Virus record (IMG/VR): IMGVR_UViG_3300029914_000006
From: an uncultured virus (IMG/VR IMGVR_UViG_3300029914_000006)
Taxonomy: Duplodnaviria; Heunggongvirae; Uroviricota; Caudoviricetes
Length of the DNA stretch: 64,000 nt
Reading direction: 5' to 3' (one strand)
Shown here: positions 1-45,064 of the stretch, in pieces
How the letters are laid out: each line of letters opens with the position of its first letter
How positions within the stretch are numbered: position 1 is the stretch's first letter
Notes under the pieces: model-generated
Databases searched by the model: none
What the model saw: the letters and a program-made list of their open reading frames with translations, nothing else
What the model was told of the DNA's origin: nothing
Position numbers and translations under genes: made by a program

Positions 1-127
1 CTTTGCTATCCAGTAGTTTCCAGCACATTGAGGACGTGCGATTCGCTCTTGAGTTCTTTATCGAGAAAATGCAGAGATCGCGGGATGCGCACGACCACGA
101 CAAGATCAGCGATATCGATGGATTCCA
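1..127 (+). repeat. Exact 127-bp direct repeat, copy 1 (copy 2 at 37927-38053)
   Basis: CTTTGCTATCC...GATGGATTCCA is identical in both places. The first mismatch is at 128 (T) versus 38054 (C). Confidence 0.95.
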
Positions 128-389
128 TCGCGACTTCTTGACCGGCTTCAAGGAGCATTCATGGTGGGACAATCACCGCAAGGTCAACCGTCACCATCTG
201 CTCGAGGCAGACGGCGTTCCCGCCGATGTGAACCTGATCGACGTTTTGGACATGATTTCAGATTGCGTCATGGCCGGCATGGCTCGTTCTGGTTCTGTTT
301 ATCCGCTCAATATCGACCCTGAAGTTCTCGTGCGCGCATTCCAGAACACCGTAGAATTGCTCAAGAAAAACGTGGAGGTCGTCGGATAA
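3..389 (+). CDS. HD-like phosphohydrolase (DUF5662-like), 3' part of the phage A copy; 5' part lies at 37851-37926
   Basis: HDHDK...NHRKVNRHH...NLIDVLDMISD pattern. Near-identical to 37851..38348. Confidence 0.6.
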   Translation: MLSSSFQHIEDVRFALEFFIEKMQRSRDAHDHDKISDIDGFHRDFLTGFKEHSWWDNHRKVNRHHLLEADGVPADVNLIDVLDMISDCVMAGMARSGSVYPLNIDPEVLVRAFQNTVELLKKNVEVVG

Positions 390-2060
390 ATGGCGAGATT
401 TGGCCTCATCGGCTCCTCGTACCAGAGCCAGTCGACTATCGCGGACTGCCAGCGGACGATGAACTGGTACCAGGAAAACATCGAAAGCCAGATGGCGGCG
501 TCTTCGATGGCGCTCTATCCTACGCCCGGACTGGCAGCATGGGGAACAATCGACAAGCCCGTACGCGGTGAGATCGAGATTAACGGGCGCATGTTTGCCG
601 TGGGGGGCGCGAAGTTCTACGAGATGAATGCTGCAGGTTCCCCGACGATGATCGACACCGTGGGTAATAATCTTCAGCCGGTCACGATGGCGACGAATGG
701 CACGCTCGGCAATCAAGTGCTCATCTGCTCCGATGGTAAGCTATTCATCTACACGCTGGACGCAATCGGGAACATCCCCAAAGGTACGTTCACGCAGGTA
801 AGCTCTTTGCAGGGAATTCCCGCATCCGTGGTGTTTTGCCATAGTTATTTCGTGGCTTTGCTGGCCGGAACGAACAAGTTTCAGGTGTCGAACCTGCTCG
901 ATGGTTCCACGTGGAATGCGCTCGGCGTCCAGCAGAACGAGACGTTTCCAGAGAATATCGCCTCCATTGTCTCCGCATACAACTTTCTCTTTGTTCTAGG
1001 GCAGGATGGTCACTCGCAGGTCTACTACAACTCCGTAGCCAGCCAGTACACGCCGTTCAGCCCCATTTCAGGAGCCTACATGGAGGAAGGCTGCGGAGCG
1101 CCACTATCGCCTGTCGTGATGGATAACACTGTTTTCTGGCTCGGCGGACGAGATGGCATGGGCGATATTGCTTGGCGCGCGAACGGTTACACCCCAACGC
1201 GGGTATCAAATTTCGCCGTTGAGACTGCTTGGGCATCATATCCGTTGAAGGGTTCGGACGCGGTGGGATACACGTACCGCGACCAGGGCCACACGTTTTG
1301 GGTTCTGCGCTTCCCTTCGGCCAATGGAGGCGCTGGCGCTACTTGGGTTTATGACGCATCTAGCCAGCAATGGCACGAGCGCGGATTCTGGTCGCAGACT
1401 GGGCCTACCGGATACAGCGCACACCTTTCAACCTGCCATGTATTCGCGTTCGGAAAGCATCTTGTAGGGGACTGGAATTCAGGCAATATTTATTCGATGG
1501 ATATTGCCAACCTTACGGACAATGGTACCGCGATTCGCCGATGGCGGCGCTCTCCTCACATCTCCGCTGAGCGCGAGCGCGTGTTCCTCGACCGTTTGCA
1601 GATCGATTTAGAGGTAGGCTTGGGCCCAGAACCACCGCTCATTGGCCTGACGCCGCCGATGGAGCAAACTGGCGTCTCAGAGGCGGGTAAACTGGTAATT
1701 GATGACCAAAGTGGAGGTCGATATGCGCTATCGGTGGATAATTCCGATGGATCGCTCTCTGCAGCATCACTTACGCCAGCAGGGCAACAGCCTCCCTACT
1801 ATCGCGGTCCGCAGTTGTCGGTTAGCATCTCCCGCGACGGGTCAAAGACGTTCGGACCGGAGCACTTGTTGGACTGTGGACAGGATGGTGAAACTAGGAA
1901 ACGAGTCATCCTGCGGCGGCTTGGTCAGGCGCGAGACTTCGTATTCGACATTGTAGCCACGGACCCAGTACCTTGGCGCATAATCGACGGTTATATTGAA
2001 GGAACAGGCTTCCAGCAGCCAATGCAGCGGCTACAGAAGCAGATGGCACAGGTGCAATGA
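390..2060 (+). CDS. Packaged-DNA stabilisation / tail hub protein (P22 gp10-like)
   Basis: 556 aa with N-terminal QRTMNWY..LYPTPGL, TWVYDASSQQWHER and C-terminal ISRDGSKTF..LRRLGQARDFVF motifs. Lies after the connector gene on the circle. Confidence 0.8.
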   Translation: MARFGLIGSSYQSQSTIADCQRTMNWYQENIESQMAASSMALYPTPGLAAWGTIDKPVRGEIEINGRMFAVGGAKFYEMNAAGSPTMIDTVGNNLQPVTMATNGTLGNQVLICSDGKLFIYTLDAIGNIPKGTFTQVSSLQGIPASVVFCHSYFVALLAGTNKFQVSNLLDGSTWNALGVQQNETFPENIASIVSAYNFLFVLGQDGHSQVYYNSVASQYTPFSPISGAYMEEGCGAPLSPVVMDNTVFWLGGRDGMGDIAWRANGYTPTRVSNFAVETAWASYPLKGSDAVGYTYRDQGHTFWVLRFPSANGGAGATWVYDASSQQWHERGFWSQTGPTGYSAHLSTCHVFAFGKHLVGDWNSGNIYSMDIANLTDNGTAIRRWRRSPHISAERERVFLDRLQIDLEVGLGPEPPLIGLTPPMEQTGVSEAGKLVIDDQSGGRYALSVDNSDGSLSAASLTPAGQQPPYYRGPQLSVSISRDGSKTFGPEHLLDCGQDGETRKRVILRRLGQARDFVFDIVATDPVPWRIIDGYIEGTGFQQPMQRLQKQMAQVQ

Positions 2061-2251
2061 TGGCTCAGACGATCAATGTTCCCTCCCCGGTATCCGCAGC
2101 GGTTCCGTTCGTTCACTCGCAGGCGAGTCAGATTCCTTCCCCTCCTAGCGGGCTCACTGAGTTCGGATACAAACACCTTTCAGACACTCAGACGGCGATT
2201 GCGGCCCTTGTCGCACAGGTTGCCGCACTAAACGCAAAGGCAGGACTATGA
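2057..2251 (+). CDS. Small virion protein, hypothetical
   Basis: Translationally coupled to both neighbours; C-terminal coiled coil. Confidence 0.6.
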   Translation: MMAQTINVPSPVSAAVPFVHSQASQIPSPPSGLTEFGYKHLSDTQTAIAALVAQVAALNAKAGL

Positions 2252-4386
2252 AAAACCGTATTATCACATTTCTCGGAACGCTGGCACTATTCCTGAGCTC
2301 TGTCCCTGCTGTATCTCAGAATCCTGTGGTGCCTTTCCGGTCGCCGCGCGCCACGTTCACCACTCAGACAGGCCAGCCACTCTCGGGCGGATGCATCTAC
2401 ACCTACCAAGGCGGCACAACCACTCAGCAGGCGACCTACACCGATTACACAGGCGGCACAGCCAACACGAACCCCGTCATTCTCGATACTACCGGCAGCG
2501 CTGTGATGTGGCTTGGCGCGAACTCCTACAAGTTTGTCGCCTACAGCGCTGGTGGGTATCACTGCTCATCGGGAAGCCTCCAGTGGACGGTTGATCAGAT
2601 TCCCGGCGATGCGTTCCTGAACGGGACCATAAGCGGCGCGACAATCACCAACCCTACAATCACCGGCGGCACGGATTCAGGCACAACAATTTCCAGTGCG
2701 GTAATTACAGGATCGAGCATCAATAGTTCTGCAATCGGCTCCTCTGTGCCAGCATCAGGGTCGTTTACCAGCGTAGCCTCAGCGCTCCAGGCCGTGACCT
2801 TTAGTTCGACTCCCGTCTTTGCTGCTAGCAGTTACGGTTATTTCACTATGACGCTGAGCGGAAATGTCGCATCCAGCACAATCACCGGAGCAACTACGGG
2901 CCAGACGATAGCTTTTCAGATTTGCCAGAACGGGACCGGTCAGGTGGTTAACAGCCAAACTACCGGATTTACGTTTGCGTGGCCTTCTACGTACCCGAAT
3001 GCACCCACGATAAACTCTGCGCTGAATGCTTGCACTGTGGTGACTGCTTTCTATAATGGCTCCAACTGGGTCACGATCTCGCAGAGCCAGCAGGTGATTC
3101 TTGGCAATCTCGATACTCTAACGTTCACGTCTACGCCGATATTTCCAGCAACAAACTACTCGAATTTCCTGCTCACGCTCACAGGGAACGCGACAAGTAG
3201 CACAATTGCAGGCGGAACCATTGGACAGGTTTCCACCTTCGACATATGCGAAGACTCGACCGGGGGGCGAACCTTCGTGTGGCCTTCGAATGTCCTAAAT
3301 TCTCCCCAGTTTGTGACTAACGCGGGAGTGTGCAACTCGCTGATTACGGTTTACAACGGAACAAACTGGAACACGGTTGCAAGCTCCTCGACAAGCTCTA
3401 CTCCGCTGACCGGGAACCTGGATATCATCGGTTTCACTTCTGCCCCGTCATTTAACGCGGCGAGCTACAGCGCTTTCCAGATGACACTAGGGGGTAATGT
3501 CACTTCCAGCTCGATCATCGGCGGATCAACTGGACAGTTGATTTCCATCGCACTGATACAGGGGTCGTCTACAACTACGGCTCCAGCGAGCGCTCCGACA
3601 GTCACAACCTCTACCACTGGAGGCAGTCTCCCGGCTACGACAACCTATTACGCAAAATGCAGTTATCTGTTCGGGGTGACAGAGAGCCTGCCGAGCGCGG
3701 AGGCGTATCAGGCGACAGGCTCAGGGTCTACGAACTCAATCACTTGGACCTGCCCAGCGTATGCGGGCGTGACGCAGTACAAGTTCTATCTGGGGGCGGG
3801 GACGGGTGCAGAAGCCTATTATTATCTGACAACCAGCACTTCATTTGTGCAGCAAAATATACCCAGCAGTTACACTCCGGGCTCGCCGTACGGATCAAGC
3901 ATATACACCGTAGCGTGGCCTTCCAACCTGATAAACCCGCCACTGATGGCTACTGGTGTAGGCGCTACGACCGCTCTTACTGCCGTGTACAACGGTTCAT
4001 ATTGGGTAACGGTAGGATCAAGTGGTGCAGGTAGCAGCAATAGCGGCCCGGTGTGCGTGGGCGGTAATTGCTATCGGCAGAACCCTGATGGAAGCTATGA
4101 CGAGTGGGGATCAACTCCCACGTTTGGAGGGCAGAATGGCGGTAGCTTCAGCATGGCTTTCCCTCATGCATTCACCACGCTTTCGAGTATTCAGGTAGTT
4201 TTTAGTCCGAACGGATGCGATGGCGGCAATGCGGCTACCTGCGCCGCGAATCCAAGCGGCAGCCCGAACAACGTGTACACGTGTGGAATTCTTACTCCAA
4301 GCGTAAGCGCGCCTACCGGCTTCTATTCGTCCTCGAATACGGTAACCGCCGGAGCGTCATGTTCCTGGATGGCGAAGGGGTATTGA
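2248..4386 (+). CDS. Tail fibre-like protein with N-terminal signal peptide
   Basis: Virion-attachment-type segment GQPLSGGCIYTYQGGTTT..NTNPVILD, three internal beta repeats (TF.STP.F.A..Y..F..TL.GN..SSTI.G), and a C-terminal fibre-tip-like YRQNPDG..DEWG..FPHAF. Confidence 0.75.
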   Translation: MKNRIITFLGTLALFLSSVPAVSQNPVVPFRSPRATFTTQTGQPLSGGCIYTYQGGTTTQQATYTDYTGGTANTNPVILDTTGSAVMWLGANSYKFVAYSAGGYHCSSGSLQWTVDQIPGDAFLNGTISGATITNPTITGGTDSGTTISSAVITGSSINSSAIGSSVPASGSFTSVASALQAVTFSSTPVFAASSYGYFTMTLSGNVASSTITGATTGQTIAFQICQNGTGQVVNSQTTGFTFAWPSTYPNAPTINSALNACTVVTAFYNGSNWVTISQSQQVILGNLDTLTFTSTPIFPATNYSNFLLTLTGNATSSTIAGGTIGQVSTFDICEDSTGGRTFVWPSNVLNSPQFVTNAGVCNSLITVYNGTNWNTVASSSTSSTPLTGNLDIIGFTSAPSFNAASYSAFQMTLGGNVTSSSIIGGSTGQLISIALIQGSSTTTAPASAPTVTTSTTGGSLPATTTYYAKCSYLFGVTESLPSAEAYQATGSGSTNSITWTCPAYAGVTQYKFYLGAGTGAEAYYYLTTSTSFVQQNIPSSYTPGSPYGSSIYTVAWPSNLINPPLMATGVGATTALTAVYNGSYWVTVGSSGAGSSNSGPVCVGGNCYRQNPDGSYDEWGSTPTFGGQNGGSFSMAFPHAFTTLSSIQVVFSPNGCDGGNAATCAANPSGSPNNVYTCGILTPSVSAPTGFYSSSNTVTAGASCSWMAKGY

Positions 4387-4841
4387 TGGCCGATATCCGC
4401 AAGGTAAGCTACGCGGACATTCTCGGAGCTCCGAACGCAAAGGAGCTATTTGCCGAGTACGAGTCCGAGTGCGCGAACCCTGAGCTAGCTCCAATCAATC
4501 CACAGGCCGATCTTTACGCTTTAATGGAGGCATCGGGAGGCTTGCAAGCGTTTGGGGTTTACGAGGGAGACGCGCTAATCGGATTCCTTACTGTGCTGGT
4601 TTGGACGATTCCGCACTACGGTAAAAATATCGGTTCCAATGCTGATATTTTCCTCGCACCGGGGCATAGGATGAGCGGAACAGGCGCAAGAATGATAGAT
4701 CTCGCAGAGGAATACGCGAAAAGCAAGGGAGGCGCCTGCTTTCAATGGACCGTCCCCGCGGGAAGCCGGTTTGCGAGGTTGCTGGCTCTCAACGCGGGAC
4801 GGTACCGCCGCTCCAATTCTGTCTACCTGAGGACGTTATGA
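4386..4841 (+). CDS. GNAT-family acetyltransferase
   Basis: DIFLAPGHRMSGTGARMIDLAEEYAKSKG acetyl-CoA binding motif. ATG overlaps the upstream TGA. Confidence 0.8.
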   Translation: MADIRKVSYADILGAPNAKELFAEYESECANPELAPINPQADLYALMEASGGLQAFGVYEGDALIGFLTVLVWTIPHYGKNIGSNADIFLAPGHRMSGTGARMIDLAEEYAKSKGGACFQWTVPAGSRFARLLALNAGRYRRSNSVYLRTL

Positions 4842-5266
4842 GTCTCGCTCTGATCGACAAAACGCTGCCGCCTACAACTCCAGAAATTATGGAGAAAATT
4901 GCGCTGGTGGAGGCGAGAATAAGGCCACACGAGAATACGCTCCAGGTGAAGATGGAGCATTCTCTCCATGCGGGAATGTATGCCCGTACCTGCCGTCTGG
5001 CCGCGTATCAGGTCATCACCAGCGTTCTCATCAAGATCCCCACGTTGCTTATCGTCAACGGGGATTGCATCGTTCTGGCGGGCGAAGAATGGAAAGAGCT
5101 GAAGGGATACAATGTTCTCAACGCTCCCTCCGGACGCAAACAGATTTATGTGACACGTGCGGAAACGGAAATTACGATGATTTTCCCGAGCAACGCGAAA
5201 ATGGTTGAAGAAGCAGAGGACGAATTCAGCGACGAATCCGCCAATTTGCTCAGTAGGAGGTCGTAA
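4838..5266 (+). CDS. Conserved phage protein (cupin-like) preceding the ejection genes
   Basis: HSLHAGMYARTC..SGRKQ motif typical of the gene next to the GNAT in P22-like phages. Confidence 0.6.
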   Translation: MSLALIDKTLPPTTPEIMEKIALVEARIRPHENTLQVKMEHSLHAGMYARTCRLAAYQVITSVLIKIPTLLIVNGDCIVLAGEEWKELKGYNVLNAPSGRKQIYVTRAETEITMIFPSNAKMVEEAEDEFSDESANLLSRRS

Positions 5267-6291
5267 TGTCGGGTGTGGCTACTGGTACGGCGCTAATGAT
5301 CGGCGGGGGACTTGCGGCGGGCGGCAGTGTCGCCAGCGGCCTCATTGGAGCAAATGCTGCGGAGAATGCGGCGTCCACCCAAGCAACAGCAGCCGAGAAG
5401 AATGCGCAGATGCAGGGGTCTCTCGGCCAGGAAGGTCTTACCCTCGAAAACCAGCAGAACCAGCAGAACCAGGCCAATCTCCAGCCTTATTTGCAGACCG
5501 GCGACAATGCGAACGCGACCCTGCAATATCTGATGGGCATGGGTGGCGAGAATCCAGGCGGCGGGGGTGCAACGACAGGTGCAGGACAAACGCTCTCGAT
5601 CCCCGGAATCTCTGGATCTGTAGCCGTTCCCGGCGTCACTACCACAACCGGAACAGCAGCGACGAATCTGGGATCGTATGGCGAGCTGATGAAGGGATAC
5701 GGGGGAGGCGCTTTTCAAGCTCCCACTGCGGATCAGGCCCGGCAGACTCCCGGATATCAATTCGGCTTACAGCAGGGAGAGGGCGCGCAGCAAGCCAGCG
5801 CGGCGGCGAATGGAACACTTCTCACTGGGGGGACGCAGGCGGCGCTCAACCAATACGGCCAGAACTATGCGGACACGAATTACAACAACGTCTACAACCA
5901 GGCTCTCCAGACCTACGGCACGAATTACAACAATTGGGCGAATCAACAAACCAGCGAATACAACAAGCTGGCGGGTATGGCTGGCATGGGTCAGACAGCG
6001 GCGAACACCATGAACAGCAACGGCTTGCAGTCTACCGGGCAGATGGAAAACACGCTCACCAATACCGGGCAGCAGGTCGGCCAGCAGAACACCAATGCCG
6101 CGGCTGCGACCGCTTCCGGTTACGTTGGGGCCGGAAATGCATACGGCGGCATGGCCAGCGGGGTGGGCAATAGCTTAAGTCAGATGATGATGCTCAAATC
6201 GCTATACGGTGCATCGGGAACAAGCGGCAGCGGAAGCAGCGGTACGCAGTCAGATATTAACAACATGTTCAACTTGGATTACATGGGGTAG
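5266..6291 (+). CDS. DNA ejection / pilot protein (gp7-like)
   Basis: Gly/Ala/Gln-rich, hydrophobic N-terminus, QPYLQTG and TPGYQFGLQQG..SAAANG.L.GGT motifs. Confidence 0.75.
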   Translation: MSGVATGTALMIGGGLAAGGSVASGLIGANAAENAASTQATAAEKNAQMQGSLGQEGLTLENQQNQQNQANLQPYLQTGDNANATLQYLMGMGGENPGGGGATTGAGQTLSIPGISGSVAVPGVTTTTGTAATNLGSYGELMKGYGGGAFQAPTADQARQTPGYQFGLQQGEGAQQASAAANGTLLTGGTQAALNQYGQNYADTNYNNVYNQALQTYGTNYNNWANQQTSEYNKLAGMAGMGQTAANTMNSNGLQSTGQMENTLTNTGQQVGQQNTNAAAATASGYVGAGNAYGGMASGVGNSLSQMMMLKSLYGASGTSGSGSSGTQSDINNMFNLDYMG

Positions 6292-6294
6292 ACG

Positions 6295-7911
6295 ATGGGC
6301 AGCATTCCGCTTTTAGCTCTTGACGTTCGACAACCCGAGCAGCCTCCAAACCTGATTAGCCAGTACGGGCAGCTTATGGCAATCAAGGGGCAGCAGGCGC
6401 AACAGGCACAACAGCAGGCCATGGCCCCGCTCCAGCAGCAGCAAGCCCAGCAGCAAGTGCAGAGCGGCGCAATGGAGCTACAGCAGCGCCAGCAGGACCT
6501 AAAGGACCAGCAGGGAATTTCCAACTGGTTCATGCATATCGACCCGAAAGACCCGGACGCCTTCAACCCCACTACGGTTGGGAAAACCCTCGCCTCACAG
6601 GGGGTTTCCGGCAAGGGGATCATGGCGGCGCAGGGTCAGCTTTTGCAGCACCAGCAGACAGCCGCAACGCTGACCAAGGACCAACTCGCAAACCAGCAGC
6701 AGATGAACGATAGCCTCTACAGCGGAATCAATGGGATTATCGGCGTCACAGACCCTCAGCAGCGGGCGCAGGCTATCACCGCGCTTCTTCCGCAAGCGGT
6801 CCAGTCGAAAGCCTTACAGCCACAGCAAGCCCAGCAACTCGCGCAGAATCCCGCAGCGGTCACGGATGACCAGCTCAAGGCGCTCCAGCACGGGCTCGGC
6901 ATCAGTTCAGCATTTCTTGGGTCGGTTGCGCGGATGCAGACGGCGCAGACCGGCGCGCAGACGGCCGCAATCAAGGCCCCCGGCGAACAGGCCGCATCGG
7001 ATTCGCTGGTGCTCAGGAATGCGGCGCAACAGCTTGCGGCGTCTCCAGACCAGGCGACCTACCAGGCCGCGCTCGGCGAACTGCCGATGAAGATTGCGAA
7101 GAACTTCCCCGCGCAGTTCGACAAAAACGCGGTACTTCAGGCTGGGATGCCTCCAGATGAACAGATGAAGTATGATCCCGCAACTCAAGCTAACCTGGCC
7201 GCTGTAAAGGCGGGAGCGGAAGCGAAGGCGAGACAGCCGTTTGAAATGGCTCTTGCACGGCAAAGACAGGCGCTCTCCCAGGGCGATCCAAACGCGGCGG
7301 CGCAGCTTTTGCTCGACGGCGATGCGACCTTATCAGAATTGAAGGCGCGCGGATCGACACCTCAGTTTATCGCGCAGACATTGCAGGCTGCGCACCAAAT
7401 GAGCGGTGGAAAATACAACGCTCAGAGCGCAGAATCTCAATTCAGTGTCGCTAAGTCGCCTCAACAGGTGCAATTCTTTGGATCAGCAAAGTCCCTTACT
7501 GACCCAGGCGGAACGCTCGACCAGTTGGCAGAATCTGCGAAAAAGATTCCGCAAAACCAAATTCCCAAATTCAATTCAATTGAGGATTGGGCGAGGGAAG
7601 CAGCCGGAAGCGGTCCTCTCGCCGAATACGCTTCGCGCGTTCTTGGGGTTGCCGATGATTATTCAAAGGTGATGGGCGGGGGTGTCGGTAGCGATCAATC
7701 TAGGCTGCAGGCTGCAAATCTCGTATCGGCAAAGCTCAGCAAAGAGGGAAGAGAAGGGGCGCTCAACGGAATCCGTGGATCTGTAAATTCGCAAATCAAG
7801 TCCCGCATTGGCAATAACGCTATCCTCCAGAGAATGTACGGGGATGCTGGATCGGGTTCGCCCACATCTGGAAATGACCCGTTTGCGCAGTTCGGCGGAA
7901 AGGCTCACTAA
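6295..7911 (+). CDS. Ejection protein (gp20 position)
   Basis: 538 aa Gln/Ala-rich helical protein, second gene of the ejection cluster. Confidence 0.55.
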   Translation: MGSIPLLALDVRQPEQPPNLISQYGQLMAIKGQQAQQAQQQAMAPLQQQQAQQQVQSGAMELQQRQQDLKDQQGISNWFMHIDPKDPDAFNPTTVGKTLASQGVSGKGIMAAQGQLLQHQQTAATLTKDQLANQQQMNDSLYSGINGIIGVTDPQQRAQAITALLPQAVQSKALQPQQAQQLAQNPAAVTDDQLKALQHGLGISSAFLGSVARMQTAQTGAQTAAIKAPGEQAASDSLVLRNAAQQLAASPDQATYQAALGELPMKIAKNFPAQFDKNAVLQAGMPPDEQMKYDPATQANLAAVKAGAEAKARQPFEMALARQRQALSQGDPNAAAQLLLDGDATLSELKARGSTPQFIAQTLQAAHQMSGGKYNAQSAESQFSVAKSPQQVQFFGSAKSLTDPGGTLDQLAESAKKIPQNQIPKFNSIEDWAREAAGSGPLAEYASRVLGVADDYSKVMGGGVGSDQSRLQAANLVSAKLSKEGREGALNGIRGSVNSQIKSRIGNNAILQRMYGDAGSGSPTSGNDPFAQFGGKAH

Positions 7912-9566
7912 TGGCAACCGCTCCCCAGGTTTACACCGGAATCACAGCGAGTCCGAGGGTCACTATTGACCCCTCACGCGAAGGCGTTTCTTCGCCTCCT
8001 GATGGAGGCAACGTATCCAACGTCAACAACCCGCCATCGGAAGCAGGCGCGGCCACCATCACGATGCTATCGCCGGATGGACGAACCGGGGATATCCCGA
8101 TTTCAAACATGCAGGCGGCTAAACAGGCAGGATTCAAAGTCGCTGTGCAAATGAAATCTCCCGAGGGCGTGAATGGATATGTTCCCGCCGAAAATGTCCA
8201 TGATGCAGCCGCGAAGGGCTTCAAGATGGTTCCGATCGAAGTCCCAGATGCGGCAAAGGTGAGCTACTGGGATGCGCTCACAAACCCAGTAGGGTCAGGC
8301 GGCGCGCAGCAGGGTATTATAGGCGGCGTACAGCAAATTGGCGGTCAGGCTATCAAAGCACTAGCGCAGCCCGTCCTACACCCCATCGACACCGCTGAGG
8401 GGATCTATAACACCGTGCGCCATCCCATTCAGACTGCTCAGGGAATTGGCCAGCAAGTGCAAGCTGATTACCAACAGGGCGGTGTTCCTCTCGCGGCTGA
8501 GAATCTTGCCGGCCAGGCGATTGGCGCTTATGAGGGCGGTAGACTAGCCGCACCGGTAGCCAATGCTGCCCTGAATGCGGTCCCCTCTGGATTGGGGCGC
8601 GCTGTTCTACTCGGCAAGAATCCAGAAGCGGCCTATGAGAGTGCAATGAAGCCGGGAACCACTATCAGCCAAGCGGATCGCGCGGCAATGGTGCGGACTG
8701 GGCTCCAGAATGCCATTCCGGTATCTAAGGCGGGAGTGGAAAAACTTGGCAACTTGATCGACGACCTAAATAGCGAAATCAAGGGAACCATCGCGCAAGA
8801 TCCAACACGGCCAATTGATCCGAATGCGGTAGCGACACGCATCCAGCCCACGCTCGACAGATTCGGTAATCAAGTTGTCGCACAGCCGGACTTGAACGCT
8901 ATCGAAGCGACACGACAGCAGTTCCTTGCGGAGCGCGGTGCCCGGCCTGGAACGCCTGGAACAGGTCCACGGCCTACGGGGCTGCTCGATGCCCAGGGGC
9001 GCCCTATCATGTCACAGGGAATTCCAGCAAAGCCTCCCCAGCCAGCGCCTCCGATGAACGCTGCAGATGCGCAGGCGATGAAGCAGGGAACCTATGGGGT
9101 TCTCAAGGGTAAGTATGGAGAGCAGGGAAGCGCAACGGTCGAGGCTCAAAAGGCTTTGGCGCGTGGTCTGAAAGAGGAGATTGCAACGCAATTTCCAGAA
9201 ATCAGCAACCTTAACGCAGCCGAGGGCAAACTGTTGGACTTGCAGCCAGTTCTTGAGCGCGCAGTGAATCGTATCTCGAATCATCAGGTTATCGGGATCG
9301 GAACGCCGGTAGCTGGGGCTGCAGCGACAGCGGTTACCGGAAGCACTACGCTCGGAAAAGTGGCAATGGTCGCAAAGGCTGTGCTAGACAACCCCAACAT
9401 CAAATCTCGGTTAGCTATTGCGGTGAGCAAGGGCGGCAAGATTCCTTACGCTCAAGCTCTCGCTCGCGTTCAATCCTATGCAACATCTCTTGGATCAATA
9501 TCTTCCGTTGGGCAGGAGAATTACCCCGGCGACAATCCCAATCAACCAATACCTGCCCAACAATAA
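7911..9566 (+). CDS. Ejection protein (gp16 position)
   Basis: 551 aa Ala/Gly-rich protein, third gene of the cluster, translationally coupled. Confidence 0.5.
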   Translation: MATAPQVYTGITASPRVTIDPSREGVSSPPDGGNVSNVNNPPSEAGAATITMLSPDGRTGDIPISNMQAAKQAGFKVAVQMKSPEGVNGYVPAENVHDAAAKGFKMVPIEVPDAAKVSYWDALTNPVGSGGAQQGIIGGVQQIGGQAIKALAQPVLHPIDTAEGIYNTVRHPIQTAQGIGQQVQADYQQGGVPLAAENLAGQAIGAYEGGRLAAPVANAALNAVPSGLGRAVLLGKNPEAAYESAMKPGTTISQADRAAMVRTGLQNAIPVSKAGVEKLGNLIDDLNSEIKGTIAQDPTRPIDPNAVATRIQPTLDRFGNQVVAQPDLNAIEATRQQFLAERGARPGTPGTGPRPTGLLDAQGRPIMSQGIPAKPPQPAPPMNAADAQAMKQGTYGVLKGKYGEQGSATVEAQKALARGLKEEIATQFPEISNLNAAEGKLLDLQPVLERAVNRISNHQVIGIGTPVAGAAATAVTGSTTLGKVAMVAKAVLDNPNIKSRLAIAVSKGGKIPYAQALARVQSYATSLGSISSVGQENYPGDNPNQPIPAQQ

Positions 9567-9610
9567 CGGCGAGGTAAGCAAAGGCTAATCCAATGACAAG
9601 ACTCTCAAGC

Positions 9611-11644
9611 ATGACGAAATTATACGCCACTATCGCTTTCGCATTCATGGCGGTTCTTGCTTCCGCGCAGACGAACCGTTTCCCGCCGATCAACCTCTAC
9701 ACCGGTGATCCGACAGGTGTAGCCTGCACTATCCCGAATAGTTTAGTGCAAAGCACTACAACTGAGGGGATTTACGGCTGTACCATCGGGGGAGTTTATG
9801 CTCCTCTCCCTCCAGATGCCACCAAACTCCCGCTCACCGGAGGAACGATCAACGGGAACCTCAACGTCACAGGCAATGCTACCCTTCCAAACATCGTAGG
9901 CCCAACAACGCTCACCGGCCTGCTGAACGGAACAGATGCAACTTTCTCAGACACCGTCGCGGCTACAACTGAGACTTCATGCGTCAACAATAGGACCCTG
10001 AACCCTACTTGCCCTACTTATGGAGCTGACCCGACAGGAGTAGCTGACTCCACTTCTGCCATAAATACCGCATGCTCCGTGGCATATTATGGGAATTTAC
10101 AAGTCAAACTTCCAGCGGGAATCTACAAAGTCTCTGGACAACTCACGAACTGCGGATCTCTGCCTATAGGTTTTTTTGGGAGTGGCGTAGCGAACACAAT
10201 TATCAAAAACTACAGCACCACGGCCTATATTTTCCCAGTCACCTATAGTATTTTAGGCGGCGGGACCACAACCACAACTGCCGCGCAATTTAAGGATTTT
10301 CAGATTGTTCAAGCGCCCGGTGTGACGCCCACTGCGGGTGGTGCGTTCCTAATCGGATCTGGTGTTACTGGCTATTACACAGTTGGGTTACGAATCGAAG
10401 ATGTAACAATCAACAACATGTGGGGTGGCCTTTATTTTCAGCAGGGACAGATTTCCAACTGGGTCAATAATGTATATGTAGTTTGGTCAACCAGCGGGGG
10501 GAATGGCTGCATTTATTACAATAGTGCCGTTCCAAGTGGGGATGATCATATCAACGATGTAGAGTGCAACGGGGCAAATACAGGAGTAACCATCGCCCAG
10601 TCTGACACGACAGAATACTCTAACCTGAAAACCAATGGATCGGGGGTCGTGTTCACAGGTAGCGCAATGACAGCCAATGTTCGATTTATTGATCCTTCGA
10701 TTGAGAATGCTCCCGCCTGCGGGTTCGATTTTGGTGTTGGTACACCACCTACTGAAACACAGATATTTGGCGGAGGCGTTGGAAATACAATTCACGCCCT
10801 TTGCAACGAATCAAATGCGACTAACCTTATGTATTACTTCAACAATTACAACAATAGCGGAGATGGATCTACTAGCGGCGGAAGTCAGGTGGCGGGAAAG
10901 ATTTTCACTTCTGAAACTTTCAATACCCACTCTACTGTGGATTGCTCAACAGCAGTTCCCTTTGTGTGTGGAGCAAACAACGCTGAGAGTTATACGCAGC
11001 TTTATGGCTACTCTAATGAAAGCCCCTCCGCTTTGACTTTCGGTCCAGTATCTGGCGCTATTGCTAACCAAAGTCAGGGATGGATAGGAATCGAACCTGA
11101 CGGAGCGTATTCGGGACGATTGGCATGGTTTGTACCGAAGGTAGGTAATGGAACACATACCGCGAGTGATGCAATTAGGGCATGCACTGTTTTAGGGGAA
11201 CCCTCAAACAGTCAGGTATACATGCGATGCAATGGAGGAATGTTCATTGGTCCTGATGCGTCGAGCGCCGATCCGGGTGTAAATAATCTTTCCGTATATG
11301 GGAACATCACAACTCAAGGAAGTTACGGAAACATGAACGGGCTGATTATTCCCTCTACGGTCAAAGGTAGCACAGGTACAGCTACGGGATACATCGAGAT
11401 CGCGCAATTGTGCACGACTGGGAGTATCACACCATCTGGAAGCGCAGGAGGTACGGCATCTGGAACGTGCACTCTGGCAACTTCGGCCACGGGCCAAACG
11501 GGTATCGCAGCGGCAAACGATGGAACCGTACAGGCTGGGTTGATATCGCAAGTGTCCGTCAATGGGACAACGGCGACTGTGACGATCACTACAGTGATAG
11601 CGGGATCGCCTTTAGCTAAAGCCTACAACGTCAAAGTATTTTAA
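9611..11644 (+). CDS. Tailspike / beta-helix depolymerase-like protein with signal peptide (alternative start 9593)
   Basis: KLPLTGGTINGNL fibre motif and YGADPTGVADSTSAINTA..VKLPAGIYKV pectate-lyase-3-type start, followed by Asn/Gly/Thr-rich beta repeats. Confidence 0.8.
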   Translation: MTKLYATIAFAFMAVLASAQTNRFPPINLYTGDPTGVACTIPNSLVQSTTTEGIYGCTIGGVYAPLPPDATKLPLTGGTINGNLNVTGNATLPNIVGPTTLTGLLNGTDATFSDTVAATTETSCVNNRTLNPTCPTYGADPTGVADSTSAINTACSVAYYGNLQVKLPAGIYKVSGQLTNCGSLPIGFFGSGVANTIIKNYSTTAYIFPVTYSILGGGTTTTTAAQFKDFQIVQAPGVTPTAGGAFLIGSGVTGYYTVGLRIEDVTINNMWGGLYFQQGQISNWVNNVYVVWSTSGGNGCIYYNSAVPSGDDHINDVECNGANTGVTIAQSDTTEYSNLKTNGSGVVFTGSAMTANVRFIDPSIENAPACGFDFGVGTPPTETQIFGGGVGNTIHALCNESNATNLMYYFNNYNNSGDGSTSGGSQVAGKIFTSETFNTHSTVDCSTAVPFVCGANNAESYTQLYGYSNESPSALTFGPVSGAIANQSQGWIGIEPDGAYSGRLAWFVPKVGNGTHTASDAIRACTVLGEPSNSQVYMRCNGGMFIGPDASSADPGVNNLSVYGNITTQGSYGNMNGLIIPSTVKGSTGTATGYIEIAQLCTTGSITPSGSAGGTASGTCTLATSATGQTGIAAANDGTVQAGLISQVSVNGTTATVTITTVIAGSPLAKAYNVKVF

Positions 11645-11698
11645 GCTGCATAACCACTTCGTTTCTTGAACGCGAAGGACGCAAATAAAGGGAATCGC

Positions 11699-12163
11699 AT
11701 GACGCCCGGACAGATGGCAGAGCAGATTTCGGCGCACAATGAACGCCTAAAGAGCGTCGAGCAGGGCGTCTCCAATTTTCGATCATTCCAAATTGAATCC
11801 CGTGCATTCCAAATTGAATCCCGCGAATTCTTTACGGAGTATCGCGCAGTGCGCCAGGAGCGCGAAGAGGCTGAAAGGAGGCACGATGCGGAGCGCAAAG
11901 AGCGCGAGGCGCACGCCGATGCACGAAGGAAAGAAAACCGATCAAGCAGAATCGCCATTGCCAGCATACTCACGCTGATCTGTCTGCCGCCTGCAAGCTG
12001 GGTGAGCACTCGATTTGTCCGTTACGCGTCGGATATTTACCAGATCGTGCAGGAGTGGGAGACTGTGCACAAGTCGGAGATTCAGCAAAAAAACTCGACC
12101 GGGCAATCAGATCCAGCGTATTCTATGAACAAGAATACTCAAACCGCAGCAGGAGAAAACTAG
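11699..12163 (+). CDS. Coiled-coil membrane protein
   Basis: Charged coiled coil, then a TM-like segment IAIASILTLICLPP. Contains a near-perfect 21-bp tandem duplication at 11786-11827 (FQIESR twice). Confidence 0.6.
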   Translation: MTPGQMAEQISAHNERLKSVEQGVSNFRSFQIESRAFQIESREFFTEYRAVRQEREEAERRHDAERKEREAHADARRKENRSSRIAIASILTLICLPPASWVSTRFVRYASDIYQIVQEWETVHKSEIQQKNSTGQSDPAYSMNKNTQTAAGEN

Positions 12164-12259
12164 ATGCCCAAGAAAATCGTAAAGAAGGCCAGCGCAAAAC
12201 CGAAGCCAGCAGACAAGCCGTACCCTTTCGGCAAGCCCAGCGGACCCGTCAACGCATGA
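12164..12259 (+). CDS. Small basic peptide MPKKIVKKASAKPKPADKPYPFGKPSGPVNA
   Basis: AGGAG RBS upstream and coupled to the next ORF. Below the ORF-track length cutoff. Confidence 0.5.
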   Translation: MPKKIVKKASAKPKPADKPYPFGKPSGPVNA

Positions 12260-17366: not shown

Positions 17367-17876
17367 TTAACGCCTCCAAGCAAAATCACCATGAATTTGT
17401 TTCGCTACCAAGCAATACTTTTCGTAGGCTAATTCCGGAGTATCAAATAAACCAAGATAGCTACGCTTTCCTTTTACTTCTATGCAAGCGCGCCACTTCT
17501 TGTCGCGCTTATACCACGAGACTCCCTTGAATCCACTTTTATTATTTCTCTGTGGGCCCCGGTTACATTGATTCTGCGATGAAGTTGCAATTCTTAGGTT
17601 TTCATCCCGGTTATCTAAAGTGGCTTGATTTTTATGCTCTCCTTGGCGCTTGTCTCCGAACTTAAGTCCTAGAATTTCACGATGCATTCCAATCACCACG
17701 CGTCTACCGTTTTCGAGTTTAATCTTTCGGAAGGCATAAAATGTTCGCGTGTGGGAAATCCAGCATGCCCACCACTTATATGCATTCAACTCATCAAATC
17801 GATGCGCAGAAACAAGCGCAACTTGTCCCTGAGTGAGCGGAATTTCGCGGTACAATGGCGTAGATGGGGTTGTCAT
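17367..17876 (-). CDS. HNH-AP2 homing endonuclease
   Basis: IPLTQG, MHREI..EHKNQATLDNRDENLR, SGFKGVSW..KWRA..YLGLF..HGDFA. Confidence 0.9.
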   Translation of the reverse strand: MTTPSTPLYREIPLTQGQVALVSAHRFDELNAYKWWACWISHTRTFYAFRKIKLENGRRVVIGMHREILGLKFGDKRQGEHKNQATLDNRDENLRIATSSQNQCNRGPQRNNKSGFKGVSWYKRDKKWRACIEVKGKRSYLGLFDTPELAYEKYCLVAKQIHGDFAWRR

Positions 17877-17932
17877 GATTCGCCCTCCCAGGCGATAAGG
17901 CTTGCCGGTGCTGATAACACCTGACAGCCCCA

Positions 17933-18166
17933 TTATACAACGATTTCTACATTAAATGCACGCGATTGTTTGTCCTCTTGGGGCACGCGCCCAATCAGCC
18001 CCTTGACGCGTGCGCCGATCTCTGGCACAGTGCGCTCCTTGGCGTAGTTTTTGTGGCAGAAAAGCGTTTCCCCCGCGTCTGTGCGCACCCAGAAAATATC
18101 CTTGTGCGTGACTGTGTTCTCTACCACTCCGGTAAATCTCTCTGCGTTGGTCACTTTCAAGCTCAT
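17933..18166 (-). CDS. Cold-shock/OB-fold-like small protein
   Basis: FTGVV..FWVRTDAGETLFCH..GARV..RAFNV resembles a CSD fold. Confidence 0.5.
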   Translation of the reverse strand: MSLKVTNAERFTGVVENTVTHKDIFWVRTDAGETLFCHKNYAKERTVPEIGARVKGLIGRVPQEDKQSRAFNVEIVV

Positions 18167-24739: not shown

Positions 24740-25189
24740 ATGTTGCATCCCAGCCAAAATTGCCTCGACCTGATCAAGCGCAGCGAAGGCCTGCGCCTGA
24801 CGCCGTACCTCGATCTTGCAGGGTACTGGACGGTTGGGTATGGGCACAAGCTCACAAGCGCAGAGCTGGCCGGAGATGCCAAGACGCGCAATATCACCGC
24901 GTCGGATGCTCTTTTACTGCTGATCGACGATGCGGACTGGGCCGCCGAGCAGGTAGCGCGGATAGTGCATGTGCCGCTCGCTCAAGGCCATCTCGACGCG
25001 CTCACGGACTTTGTTTTCAACCTCGGCGCTGGCCGCCTGGCAGGATCGACGCTGCTCAAACTGCTCAACGCTGGAGACTACGCCGCAGCCGGCCAGGGGC
25101 TGCTCAAGTGGGACATGGCCGCAGGCGTGCACCAGCCGGGACTAACTGCTCGGCGCAAAGCTGAGCTTGCGATGTGGGAGACAGCATGA
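24740..25189 (+). CDS. Endolysin, GH24 lysozyme
   Basis: SEGLRLTPYLDLAGYWTVGYGH (E-x8-D-x5-T), FVFNLG, GLTARRKAE. Confidence 0.93.
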   Translation: MLHPSQNCLDLIKRSEGLRLTPYLDLAGYWTVGYGHKLTSAELAGDAKTRNITASDALLLLIDDADWAAEQVARIVHVPLAQGHLDALTDFVFNLGAGRLAGSTLLKLLNAGDYAAAGQGLLKWDMAAGVHQPGLTARRKAELAMWETA

Positions 25190-25815
25190 CAATCTCGCGA
25201 ACTTTTGCGATTGTGGCCGGCGCGATCCTGGCGCTTGCGCTGGTGCTCGGCGGCTATGAGCTGCTTCAGGAGCATGACGCGCACCTCAAGGCTGAGAGTA
25301 TGCAGTCTGCGCAGCAGCAGGTAATCACCGCGGCGCAGAAGTCCATCGACCAGGCCAAGGCCGACCAAGCGCAGACTGCCAACGATCTCAAGGCGCAGCT
25401 TGCCGCTATTGCTAATCAGCGCACCATTGTGGTAACGCCTCAGCAGGCGGCCGTAGTCGCCAACACTACGCCCAACCTTCCGGCGCAGGTCCAAGTCCAG
25501 CAGGTTCCGGCTACGGCCACCGCGCCAGCCTCGCAAGAGCTCGTGATTCCGCAGGCCGACATTCCCGCGTTCCAGGCCTACAAGCTAAATTGCGATGAGA
25601 GCAGCGCCAAACTCAACGCCTGCACACTCAACGCGGCCAGTGCGGCGGTGATTCAGCAGGGCACGGCCAGCCAGCTCGCCGCGGTGACCAAAGAGCGCGA
25701 TACCTGGGAGGCTACCGCCAAGGGTGGAACGTTCTGGAAGCGGTTCAAGCATGATGCAATTCAGATCGGCGTGACGGCCGGCGTCGCCTACGCGGCAGGA
25801 AGGCTGAGCAAATGA
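25186..25815 (+). CDS. Spanin-like membrane-anchored coiled-coil protein
   Basis: N-terminal TM, coiled coil, C-terminal hydrophobic segment; follows the endolysin. Confidence 0.55.
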   Translation: MTISRTFAIVAGAILALALVLGGYELLQEHDAHLKAESMQSAQQQVITAAQKSIDQAKADQAQTANDLKAQLAAIANQRTIVVTPQQAAVVANTTPNLPAQVQVQQVPATATAPASQELVIPQADIPAFQAYKLNCDESSAKLNACTLNAASAAVIQQGTASQLAAVTKERDTWEATAKGGTFWKRFKHDAIQIGVTAGVAYAAGRLSK

Positions 25816-25981: not shown

Positions 25982-26305
25982 ATGAGCGGCAACTGGGCAG
26001 CGGGATTTCTCCGGTCGCAACTGAGCGACAAGGACGGCACGGTGAGCAATACCAAGGTCTGCGTGCTGATCGTCGTAATCGCTGTAGTATCATGGGTTTC
26101 CTGTCTGCTTTACAAGCTCCACGCGGTCGTCACAGTGACAGACATTGTGACTTTTCTTGGCTCGGCGGGCACATTTGCAACAATGCTTTGCGGTACGCTT
26201 GCAGCGCTCAAGTATGGCGCTGACTCGATCAATAACCGGGCACCCAACGCGCAGGCGCAGGTACAGCCGCCAGACGCGCCCTGCCCCCCAACCAATCCGG
26301 AATGA
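25982..26305 (+). CDS. Putative holin
   Basis: Two TM segments, AGGAGG RBS, located in the lysis cassette. Confidence 0.6.
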   Translation: MSGNWAAGFLRSQLSDKDGTVSNTKVCVLIVVIAVVSWVSCLLYKLHAVVTVTDIVTFLGSAGTFATMLCGTLAALKYGADSINNRAPNAQAQVQPPDAPCPPTNPE

Positions 26306-35192: not shown

Positions 35193-35230
35193 CGGTTTAC
35201 CTCCATTCCTTGCTGGTGTATCATGTCAAT

Positions 35231-35857
35231 ATGAACATGACACCAGCGGGGAATCGAGTGGAATTCTTTGGCGGACTTTGTTCCATCAAGGGTTGTGACC
35301 TTCCGGAATTGGCGGCGGGTTTCTGCAACAAGCACTGGCGGCGTTTACGGAAGTATGGTTCTCCGCTATGGCTGGCAAATCCATCAGGGTCGTATCGTGG
35401 ACTTCCGGCCGAGGTCAGATTCTTCAAGCGAGTCATTAAGACAGACGCTTGCTGGGACTGGCAGGGTGGAGTGGACGCAGACGGGTATGGAGTCTTTATG
35501 GGAGAGGTTTTAGGAACGGTATTACGAAGGGCGCACCGCTTCTCGTGGTCCTTTCACAATAACCGCACTATTGCTCCCGGCATGGAGATTCTGCATTCTT
35601 GCGATAACCCAAAATGTGTTAACCCAGACCATCTGTCTCTTGGAAACGCTGCTGAAAATCAGCGAGATAAGTGGACAAAGGGTAGAGGTTGGGTACATAA
35701 GGGAACATCTCACTGGTCCACGAAACTAAGCGAAGAACAAGTCCGTGAAATCCGCTCCAGCACGGAGACGCAGAAGCAACTAGGGATGAAATATGGTCTC
35801 AAGCAGTCCACCATCTCATGTATCGTTAGTCGTAAATCGTGGAAGCACGTAGACTGA
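35231..35857 (+). CDS. HNH endonuclease with C-terminal HTH
   Basis: CWDWQG..GYG..RAHRFSW..ILHSCDNPKCVNPDHL; TKLSEEQVREIR. Confidence 0.9.
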   Translation: MNMTPAGNRVEFFGGLCSIKGCDLPELAAGFCNKHWRRLRKYGSPLWLANPSGSYRGLPAEVRFFKRVIKTDACWDWQGGVDADGYGVFMGEVLGTVLRRAHRFSWSFHNNRTIAPGMEILHSCDNPKCVNPDHLSLGNAAENQRDKWTKGRGWVHKGTSHWSTKLSEEQVREIRSSTETQKQLGMKYGLKQSTISCIVSRKSWKHVD

Positions 35858-45054: not shown

Positions 45055-45064
45055 GGAGACGAGA

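Follow-up and report, generated by a model that had tools for sequence, protein, structure and literature searches.

A tail fibre of a P22-like Acidobacteria podophage carries a predicted Sec leader ahead of its head-binding domain, suggesting maturation in the periplasm

By the accepted view, every part of a tailed phage folds and is assembled in the cytoplasm. The receptor-binding protein g3p of the filamentous Ff phages has a Sec leader and forms its disulfides in the periplasm; these phages are extruded at the membrane and possess no cytoplasmic capsid, so that, unlike them, a tailed phage with an exported fibre would have to unite a cytoplasmic particle with a periplasmic protein. Superinfection-exclusion lipoproteins of the T5 Llp type carry a lipobox with Cys at position +1, a feature that distinguishes them from the three leader-bearing proteins described here (P0001, P0002 and P0003), which have Gln at +1 and no lipobox. 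In P22 gp9, Pam1, Pan3 and Sf6 gp14N, an N-terminal beta-sandwich heads a modular receptor-binding protein, and P0001, from the same kind of phage, is built alike. Those proteins, however, are leaderless, begin 10-13 residues ahead of the domain and fold in the cytoplasm, whereas in P0001 the leader adds 23 residues and the domain has a conserved Cys pair.

Two further systems come close to P0001. Cellulophaga phage phi18:3 (NC_021794, Pachyviridae), a cultured podophage, encodes three consecutive late proteins, gp085-087, with K-rich hydrophobic leaders ending in S|Q or A|Q. In its record, which is silent on leader cleavage, they are listed as proteins of the virion or tail 'based on experimental MS/MS proteomics analysis', and the 9 other proteins so annotated in the translated stretch are all leaderless. 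These proteins differ from P0001 in host phylum (Bacteroidota) and in Cys content (0, 1 and 3), and searches of cultured phages found no sequence relation between them and P0001. WceF of Pantoea stewartii (6tgf) is an exported trimer with a P22-type head domain before the receptor-active part, like P0001; unlike P0001, it has a Tat signal, is encoded in a chromosomal exopolysaccharide cluster and is no part of a virion (PMC7949094). P0001, for its part, has no twin-arginine motif (RR is absent from the leaders of all three proteins); its gene belongs to a phage tail module, and a fibre shaft takes the place of the beta-helix. No paper describing a Sec route for tailed-phage fibres was found in a search that left most subscription journals outside; the accessible parts of PMC5723332 and PMC6199706 give no account of such leaders, those of PMC11924767 contain 'signal peptide' and 'tail fiber' 0 times and those of PMC10172136 'signal peptide' 0 times, and what is accessible of a preprint (bioRxiv 10.64898/2026.10.24.761521) deals with sortase substrates, not fibres.

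The window, i.e. the whole 64-kb stretch of DNA that was analysed, holds a peat-soil P22-like podophage of Acidobacteria (phage 1) and a second, unrelated podophage to which the P0003 gene belongs. Comparison of the window ORFs with known families revealed a P22-type portal and coat for phage 1. Its tail module lies on the plus strand and includes a leaderless, P22 gp10-like tail hub protein (390..2060; phrog_578 'head closure Hc3', E 5.6e-86), the likely docking partner of the fibre. The hub gene is followed by a 64-aa ORF (2057..2251, from the ORF list) without a match in Pfam or PHROG, the fibre gene, a GNAT acetyltransferase gene (4386..4841, start approximate; PF00583 E 1.8e-6; phrog_1249), a leaderless short-fibre or needle-like protein (4745..5266; phrog_12032, E 1.2e-7) and three ejection-protein genes (5266..9566; phrog_598 for the first of the three, synteny for the others) whose products have neither leader nor Cys. 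The order adaptor, hub, fibre, GNAT, needle and ejection genes is kept in relatives, the hub gene being directly 5' of the fibre gene in 7/7 related loci compared and the GNAT gene always directly 3' of it. The position of the fibre gene is constant in these 7 loci, among them a prophage of Acidicapsa dinghuensis 4GSKX, with a coat protein only ~23% identical there; podovirus MW202483 has a leaderless homologue at the same place of its tail module. No match to cultured phages was obtained by megablast of positions 1-12200 or tblastn of P0001, and the N-domain of P0001 alone found one record (E 3e-3). Among 301 genomes sampled from the phylum of the Acidicapsa genome, a single-sequence query at E <= 1e-5, which gives no host range, found the N-domain in 1, the Acidicapsa genome itself.

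P0001 is encoded by the ORF at 2248-4386 (+), whose translation of 712 aa contains no stops. Its start codon (ATG, 2248) shares nucleotides with the stop codon of the 64-aa ORF (ATGA), and a purine-rich AAGGCAGGA lies ahead of it. The predicted Sec-type leader (2248..2316, residues 1-23) is followed by the mature N-terminal arm (Q24 to ~F37) and a beta-sandwich of head-binding type with the conserved C49/C106 (2317..2622), as judged by profile, fold and alignment. Next come a Gly/Ser/Thr-rich linker (2626..2778, residues 127-177, pLDDT < 50) and a shaft of repeated beta-sandwich modules with the conserved pairs C226/C262, C334/C362 and C471/C502 (2785..4023), for which Foldseek gives matches to R-type pyocin fibres and the Mu-type fibre 6o38. 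A C-terminal tip domain with six Cys (4045..4386, stop codon included) is the part that varies most among homologues, which exchange their C-terminal ends for Gp53-like_C, Gly_rich_2 or beta-helix. The AF2 model of P0001 has a mean pLDDT of 73.3; residues 2-22 are drawn as a helix, behind which lies a linker of low confidence, and blocks of residues 32-125 reach a pLDDT of 71-86. Neither P0001 nor P0002 nor P0003 belongs to a family in Pfam or PHROGs; PF26209 is listed for many P0001 homologues.

The first-pass annotation had described a leader with a basic n-region, a hydrophobic h-region and an A-V-S site before Gln, and this description proved correct for residues 1-23. K2 and R4 form the n-region, residues 5-20 are uncharged and hydrophobic, and A21-V22-S23 precede Q24, with a cleavage site predicted after A-V-S by our own n-h-c heuristic (used here for all leader calls in place of SignalP) and by homologue comparison. 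With its n-region, h-region and -1/-3 residues, this segment is a predicted Sec/signal peptidase I leader. The same form is kept in 101/119 homologues, with K/R before the h-region in 100/101, a small-x-small site in 101/101 and Q thereafter in 98/101; the rest comprise 4 truncated leaders, 10 leaderless proteins, 3 fragments and 1 without an N-domain match. Alignment of the homologues revealed a leader conserved in form and barely in sequence, and since the pattern recurs with diverged sequence in so many of them, it is more than a chance resemblance. Across the window the heuristic assigns leaders to P0001, P0002 (9611-11644) and P0003 (57840-60674) and none to portal, coat, scaffold, adaptor, hub or ejection proteins; the other high scores belong to membrane ORFs that are either small or anchored by the N-terminus and that lack an A-x-A|Q site.

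The N-domain family comprises 15,022 representatives at E <= 0.001, with leaders in 112 of the best 150, and a lipobox-like motif occurs within the leader in 21 of 262 members. Met1 of the 34 leaderless representatives aligns within -2 to +2 of Q24, and the head-binding domain begins at chain residue 11-13 in solved virion tailspikes as against profile position 34-36 here; the expectation that tailed-phage fibres normally lack signal peptides agrees with both the leaderless members and the solved virion structures. In P0001, unlike these, the domain is preceded by a 23-residue leader instead of starting at or near Met1. The predicted leader is also built by the same rules as signal peptides of the host itself: among the TonB-receptor leaders of Acidicapsa dinghuensis (16 loci), small-x-small|Q was seen by eye in 11 of 14 readable ones. 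VKOR and DsbA-like families are present in both host genomes, and a glutamine cyclotransferase in one of the two.

The Cys pairs noticed earlier in the repeats correspond to C226/C262 (QICQ/ACTV) and C334/C362 (DICE/VCNS), and they are conserved. Across 38 sequences C49, C106, C226, C262, C471 and C502 are invariant, and C334 and C362 nearly so. P0001, P0002 and P0003 have 14, 16 and 16 Cys, respectively, compared with 2 in the coat, 4 in the portal and 0 in each of the three ejection proteins. Among 147 family representatives, an N-domain with at least 2 Cys is found in 110/113 leader-bearing and 0/34 leaderless members, the latter having no Cys (29/34) or one (5/34). The pairs of the leader-bearing domains occur in at least 3 arrangements, at positions 49/106 in 88, 51/106 in 14 and 45/48 in 4. 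In a FastTree tree of the 147 domains, the leader and the Cys pair each change only 6 times, and a tree-aware sign test finds only 1 independent contrast on a supported branch, so that significance is unreachable; most of the association between the two traits comes from common descent.

Leader form, host grammar, mature N-terminus and Cys pairs together make the export of P0001 to the periplasm, with disulfide formation there, a well-supported prediction from comparison, in agreement with what the first-pass annotation had proposed. Leader cleavage and the disulfides themselves are probable on the same grounds.

The claim that a fibre-attachment segment lies behind the leader was borne out by sequence and fold. 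In the PDB, a profile of 38 homologues matched proteins of two cyanopodophages: the 'Tailspike head-binding domain' of Pam1 (7eeq_A) at E 3.8e-6 and the tail spike of Pan3 (9vyg, chains m/n/o) at E ~5e-5. Foldseek placed the AF2 model with the P22 tailspike head-binding domain (1lkt_A, 2vky, 8tvr_A, 8u10), Sf6 gp14N, 7sg7_A, 7eeq_A and 9vyg at a probability of 1.0 and a TM by target of 0.42-0.63. Pfam Head_binding (PF09008) matched neither P0001 nor its homologues, and in the ESM Atlas no lead reached 0.9, those obtained being 'Tailspike head-binding domain' and, for 21% of one cluster, Head_binding. By sequence, fold and tail-module position, the N-domain of P0001 matches a P22-type tailspike head-binding domain, and Q24, V27 and P29 of the arm before it are invariant among homologues.

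A complex prediction of the hub with 3 copies of residues 24-135 scored 0.44, as compared to 0.04 for the best of 3 controls; at least 31% of contacts are common to the runs, and the partner has a pLDDT of 65 or more. The mark applied to such predictions was reached by 116/157 solved complexes and 2/215 mismatches, and at scores of 0.60 or below by only 18/157 solved complexes and by both mismatches that passed. Since the P22 gp9N-gp10 complex has already been solved, the pass may also reflect memory. The prediction thus hints at a docking of the head-binding domain on the hub.

The proposal that the same design recurs at 9611 and 57840 was upheld for the leader in both cases and only in part for the attachment domain, as neither protein matches a known anchor family. 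P0002 (9611..11644, +), a second protein of receptor-binding type, has by the heuristic a 19-residue leader ending in A-S-A|Q. Four of its five homologues have full leaders and one a truncated leader, and the leader together with an N-terminal 90-aa module is common to differently tailed homologues. Its model (pLDDT 44.8) had no Foldseek match at E <= 0.001, and the top rows were beta-helix tailspikes at E 5.6e-3 or weaker; tentatively, P0002 may be a glycan-cutting beta-helix tailspike. P0003 (57840..60674, +) is a 944-aa fibre-type protein of the second podophage with a heuristic leader ending in A-A-A|Q; 25/32 homologues have a heuristic leader, two of which look false by eye, and Q stands at +1 in 23. 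With phmmer against the PDB, P0002 gave nothing and P0003 chance-level rows only.

The reading we prefer, at a probability of roughly 0.55, is that P0001 is exported by Sec, loses its leader, forms disulfides in the periplasm and docks on the tail hub at lysis. P0001 would then be the tail-docking fibre of a P22-like Acidobacteria podophage, made as a secretory precursor. Sec would carry the unfolded chain across the inner membrane, and signal peptidase I would cut after A-V-S, leaving Q24, possibly cyclised, at the head of the conserved Pro-rich arm. The chain would fold and trimerise in the periplasm, where a VKOR/DsbA-type system of the host may close ~7 disulfides, one of them within the docking domain. 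DNA-filled particles, closed by adaptor, hub and needle, would meanwhile be built in the cytoplasm without fibres, and the fibres would dock on the hub via the head-binding domain as soon as the contents of the two compartments mix through holin lesions or lysis. P0002 and P0003 may follow the same route.

Late docking, at or after lysis, is suggested by indirect points: the head-binding domain is intact and conserved, the place in the tail module is fixed in a phage without another receptor-binding gene, and the leader-bearing proteins of phi18:3 with their MS/MS annotation offer an analogy. Mixing through holin lesions is a conjecture, since no lysis genes of phage 1 were recognised among the ORFs searched against Pfam/PHROGs. 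Docking after lysis would carry a risk of dilution, and fibres with lipobox-like leaders, if lipidated, would be tethered to a membrane, a state hard to reconcile with free docking.

An exported protein need not be a virion protein, and P0001 could instead act in the envelope or outside the cell, masking or destroying receptors, cutting exopolysaccharide, which would let progeny escape and spare them from being lost on debris, or blocking superinfection; the head-binding domain would then be kept only for trimerisation or folding. The export signals are equally strong on this account, lipobox-like leaders would suit tethering to the envelope, and P0002 resembles, tentatively, a glycan-cutting beta-helix. 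WceF is likewise exported, keeps the P22-type head domain and needs it for stability (PMC7949094). Such a role would, however, leave phage 1 without a receptor-binding protein, as its other ORFs of at least 150 aa are either accounted for or not fibre-like. High conservation of the docking domain and arm together with exchange of the C-terminal ends is what virion adaptors show; the gene keeps its place between those for hub and needle and is coupled to the late operon; the leader-bearing counterparts in phi18:3 are annotated as virion-found; and the hub complex prediction leans weakly towards binding. A purely non-virion role is thus considered unlikely.

Still less probable is a division of the product, in which one part is exported, as a by-product or in a second role, and virions are fitted with protein from the cytoplasm, either precursor that escaped Sec and folded with its leader still on, or the product of an internal start just behind the leader. 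Bacterial Sec export is largely post-translational, and fast-folding trimers could escape it; an in-frame GTG GTG at residues 27-28 also lies approximately where leaderless relatives start. However, a Shine-Dalgarno-like run precedes the ATG at 2248 and not the GTGs, and in homologues such as P0079 and P0057 the arm offers no Val, Met or Leu codon at which to start; an internal start as the main reading was rejected on both grounds. Moreover, protein that stays in the cytoplasm could not acquire the conserved disulfides, of which the docking-domain pair is kept in nearly all leader-bearing members. That the hydrophobic N-terminus is no export signal at all, being an uncleaved helix buried in the tail or entering the host membrane, or the result of a miscalled start, is very improbable. 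The AF2 helix at residues 2-22 would fit such a helix, but the small-x-small site, set at a constant spacing ahead of the domain and followed so regularly by Q, is the mark of signal peptidase I, the leader sequence is hardly conserved, and solved virion structures of the same domain contain no such helix. As for a miscalled start, the frame upstream of Q24 is open and begins with M-K/R in the homologues, which makes a downstream start in them unlikely.

If receptor-binding proteins mature in the periplasm, phage assembly would include a late, compartment-crossing step, and host Sec, signal peptidase I and the VKOR/DsbA system would form a new class of host factors that these phages need. Fibres made in a reducing cytoplasm, or with the leader retained, may misfold, and annotation pipelines that count signal peptides against virion proteins would miss such fibres. 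The size of the N-domain family points to a large uncultured group and not to a single oddity, and the prophage relative in Acidicapsa dinghuensis makes the system testable. A broader scheme, to which we give slightly less than even odds, is that in tailed phages of Acidobacteria the plugged, DNA-filled particle is cytoplasmic and every outward appendage periplasmic, served by Sec, signal peptidase, disulfide and perhaps glutaminyl-cyclase systems, the halves meeting only between holin triggering and outer-membrane rupture. Phage host range would then depend on the export and oxidation machinery of the host in a way so far unrecognised.

Two metatranscriptome runs yielded short contigs at 1943-2287, 3951-4101 and 4142-4292, which may include DNA carry-over and reveal neither transcript starts nor levels; the first of them, from an RNA library, spans the 64-aa ORF into the P0001 leader and counts as weak evidence. 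Within the window, only outward-facing proteins carry leaders. Relatives of phage 1 have an additional leader-bearing ORF 3' of the coat gene and another, of 982 aa, 3' of the ejection genes.

Translation of the ORF at 2248-4386 (+) gives a tail-fibre protein of 712 residues (P0001), residues 1-23 of which run from a basic n-region (K2, R4) through a hydrophobic core free of charges to A-V-S ahead of Gln24, confirming the Sec-type leader proposed in the first-pass annotation. The leaders it had placed at 9611 and 57840 are also found: the proteins P0002 (9611-11644, +) and P0003 (57840-60674, +) each carry one of 19 residues, ending in A-S-A and A-A-A, respectively, before Gln. When leaders were called by a purpose-made heuristic (not SignalP), none was detected on the portal, coat, scaffold, adaptor, hub, needle or ejection proteins of the window. 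Homologue alignment bears out the conservation of the P0001 leader, which is present in 101 of 119 homologues (median length 22); in these, K or R precedes the hydrophobic core in 100, a small-x-small site lies at the domain boundary in all 101, and Gln follows in 98. The remaining homologues comprise 4 with leaders shortened by the gene call, 10 leaderless proteins, 3 fragments and 1 protein without the domain. Leader sequences vary freely among the homologues while the pattern is retained, as in true signal peptides. The full leader is present in 4 of 5 P0002 homologues and truncated in the other, and the heuristic calls a leader in 25 of 32 P0003 homologues, 23 with Gln at +1 and 2 apparently false on inspection by eye.

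The fibre-attachment segment noted earlier behind the leader is recovered by both profile and model. A profile of 38 homologues matches the 'Tailspike head-binding domain' of cyanophage Pam1 (E 3.8e-6) and the Pan3 tail spike, and the AF2 model of P0001 (mean pLDDT 73.3, pTM 0.30) places at residues 32-125 a beta-sandwich matching the P22 tailspike head-binding domain and Sf6 gp14N; further along the model, the matches are to R-type pyocin fibres, a Mu-type fibre and AP22 gp53. The domain starts at residue 11-13 in solved virion proteins but at position 34-36 in the P0001 family profile, an offset accounted for by the leader. The domain family has 15,022 representatives at E ≤ 0.001, and 34 of the best 150 are leaderless, with Met1 aligning within 2 residues of Gln24. 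Cleavage would thus yield the same N-terminal arm as that of leaderless fibres.

P0001, P0002 and P0003 contain 14, 16 and 16 Cys, respectively, and the coat protein 2, the portal 4 and each of three ejection proteins none. The Cys pairs pointed out previously in P0001 (C226/C262 and C334/C362) belong to a set conserved across 38 sequences, in which C49, C106, C226, C262, C471 and C502 are invariant and C334 and C362 nearly so. Among 147 aligned domains (the 150 representatives less 4 whose best match was an internal second copy, plus P0001), two or more Cys occur in 110 of 113 leader-bearing domains (49/106 in 88, 51/106 in 14, 45/48 in 4, other pairs in 4, none in 3) and two in no leaderless domain (no Cys in 29, one in 5). 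Such restriction of Cys pairs to leader-bearing proteins would be expected if these were exported into an oxidising compartment. In a FastTree phylogeny, however, each trait changes just 6 times, and only 1 independent contrast falls on a supported branch; the association therefore largely reflects one large clade keeping both traits, not many independent events.

That the N-terminus is a structural helix, or its start miscalled, is highly improbable in view of the retained leader pattern. The P0001 ATG overlaps the stop of a 64-residue ORF and follows a purine-rich run. A somewhat unlikely reading is that the leader-bearing proteins are exported for a role outside the virion. In 21 of 262 family leaders (P0070, P0072, P0075, P0076, P0175, P0241 and others), a motif resembling a lipobox (for example L-x-G-C) stands a few residues ahead of the usual A-x-A/Gln site, so that a minority of the family may be lipoproteins; any that are lipidated would fit poorly with free docking. 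On the side of a virion role, the genes run adaptor, hub, fibre, GNAT, needle, ejection in all of 7 related loci, with coat proteins only ~23% identical to that of the window, and in an unrelated P22-like podovirus a leaderless homologue stands behind the hub gene. No receptor-binding candidate other than P0001 was found in the first phage of the window except P0002, itself leader-bearing. In every relative compared, the leader-bearing fibre gene has a GNAT acetyltransferase gene behind it (window, 4386-4841; related locus L008, 8115-8570; Acidicapsa dinghuensis prophage L015, 12309-12770).

In relatives, a further ORF with a leader follows the coat gene and has a weak phrog_1101 'tail protein' match, and the Acidicapsa prophage also has a leader-bearing protein of 982 residues and 20 Cys after its ejection genes; such late proteins lie at 5816-6850 and 18262-21210 of L015, 1553-2578 of L010 and 9-734 of L014. 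Outward-facing parts thus seem to carry leaders and core parts not. Leaders ending in S or A before Gln, like that of P0001, occur on gp085-087 of Cellulophaga phage phi18:3, from another phylum, annotated in its record as structural 'based on experimental MS/MS proteomics analysis', and are absent from 9 other MS/MS-annotated phi18:3 proteins translated; this is an experimental hint, by analogy, that leader-bearing proteins may be virion parts. Complex prediction for the hub with three copies of P0001 residues 24-135 scored 0.44 (best control, 0.04), in a range (≤0.60) where no more than 18 of 157 solved complexes passed, along with both of the 2 passing mismatches (of 215), and the pass may come from memorisation, since the P22 complex is solved; it lends weak support to hub-fibre docking. 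The P0002 model was poor. Dual forms of the leader-bearing proteins, only part of the product being exported, are improbable.

In the proposed mechanism, held slightly more likely than not, P0001 would be exported by Sec and cleaved ahead of Gln24, whose cyclisation is possible given the glutamine cyclotransferase (E 6e-94) encoded by the Acidicapsa dinghuensis genome. It would fold and form disulfides in the periplasm, and dock on fibreless, plugged particles once the compartments are joined, through holin lesions or by lysis. Tailspike-less P22 heads are stable and are 'tailed' in vitro by purified tailspike, and canonical holins open very large membrane holes, which makes such docking plausible. 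VKOR and DsbA-like proteins are encoded by both host genomes examined. Acidicapsa TonB-receptor leaders (16 loci, L023-L038; scored by eye) likewise end in small-x-small before Gln in 11 of 14 readable cases; the phage leaders therefore follow the signal grammar of the host. Gln at +1 together with the cyclotransferase in this acidobacterium resembles the 'Q-rule' known from Bacteroidota. Family searches within the window identified no lysis gene of the first phage; the only endolysin-like ORF (38335-38826; phrog_315, PG_binding_3) is located past the end of its genome copy, and N-terminal membrane segments occur in ORFs 25174-25815 and 26042-26305.

In the portions of the literature available to the search, no account was found of tailed-phage fibres bearing Sec leaders; the nearest case there is WceF of Pantoea stewartii (PMC7949094), which is a Tat-exported, tailspike-like bacterial enzyme, whereas P0001 is a tailed-phage fibre with a Sec-type leader.

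The window from 1 to ~37,926 is one circularly permuted copy (100% identity) of the virus record G001, which is 38,053 bp long and has direct terminal repeats. Positions 1-382 are repeated at 37927-38308; the window holds slightly more than one copy of this phage and at the junction (38308) runs straight into an unrelated podophage from 38309 onward. The two phages may stand in tandem or may have been joined by chimeric assembly. ORF 3-389 has a variant at 37851-38348 that ends differently, and P0001 and P0003 are both recorded on one 125,718-bp contig. By family searches, the first phage is P22-like (P22_portal, E 3e-124; P22 coat protein, E 2.4e-31; large terminase and adaptor), its tail module comprising a gp10-like hub (phrog_578, E 5.6e-86), the P0001 fibre, GNAT, a short fibre or needle-like protein and ejection proteins. 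The portal and adaptor of the second are of SU10 type, and it encodes a 944-residue fibre-type protein of its own, P0003. Judged from full-length P0001 homologues in the Acidicapsa dinghuensis prophage and an Acidobacteria MAG, the host is acidobacterial; the stretch is present in full in 18 peat metagenome runs, possibly including the source sample.

A CBASS inhibitor Acb3 gene (45044-45901; PF25187, E 2.9e-80) directly follows the large terminase gene of the second phage. Family searches also revealed three HNH homing-endonuclease-type genes (17367-17933, -; 35210-35857, +; 56487-57458, -), two of them HNH-AP2; one lies between the coat and adaptor genes of the first phage and one just upstream of the fibre gene of the second.
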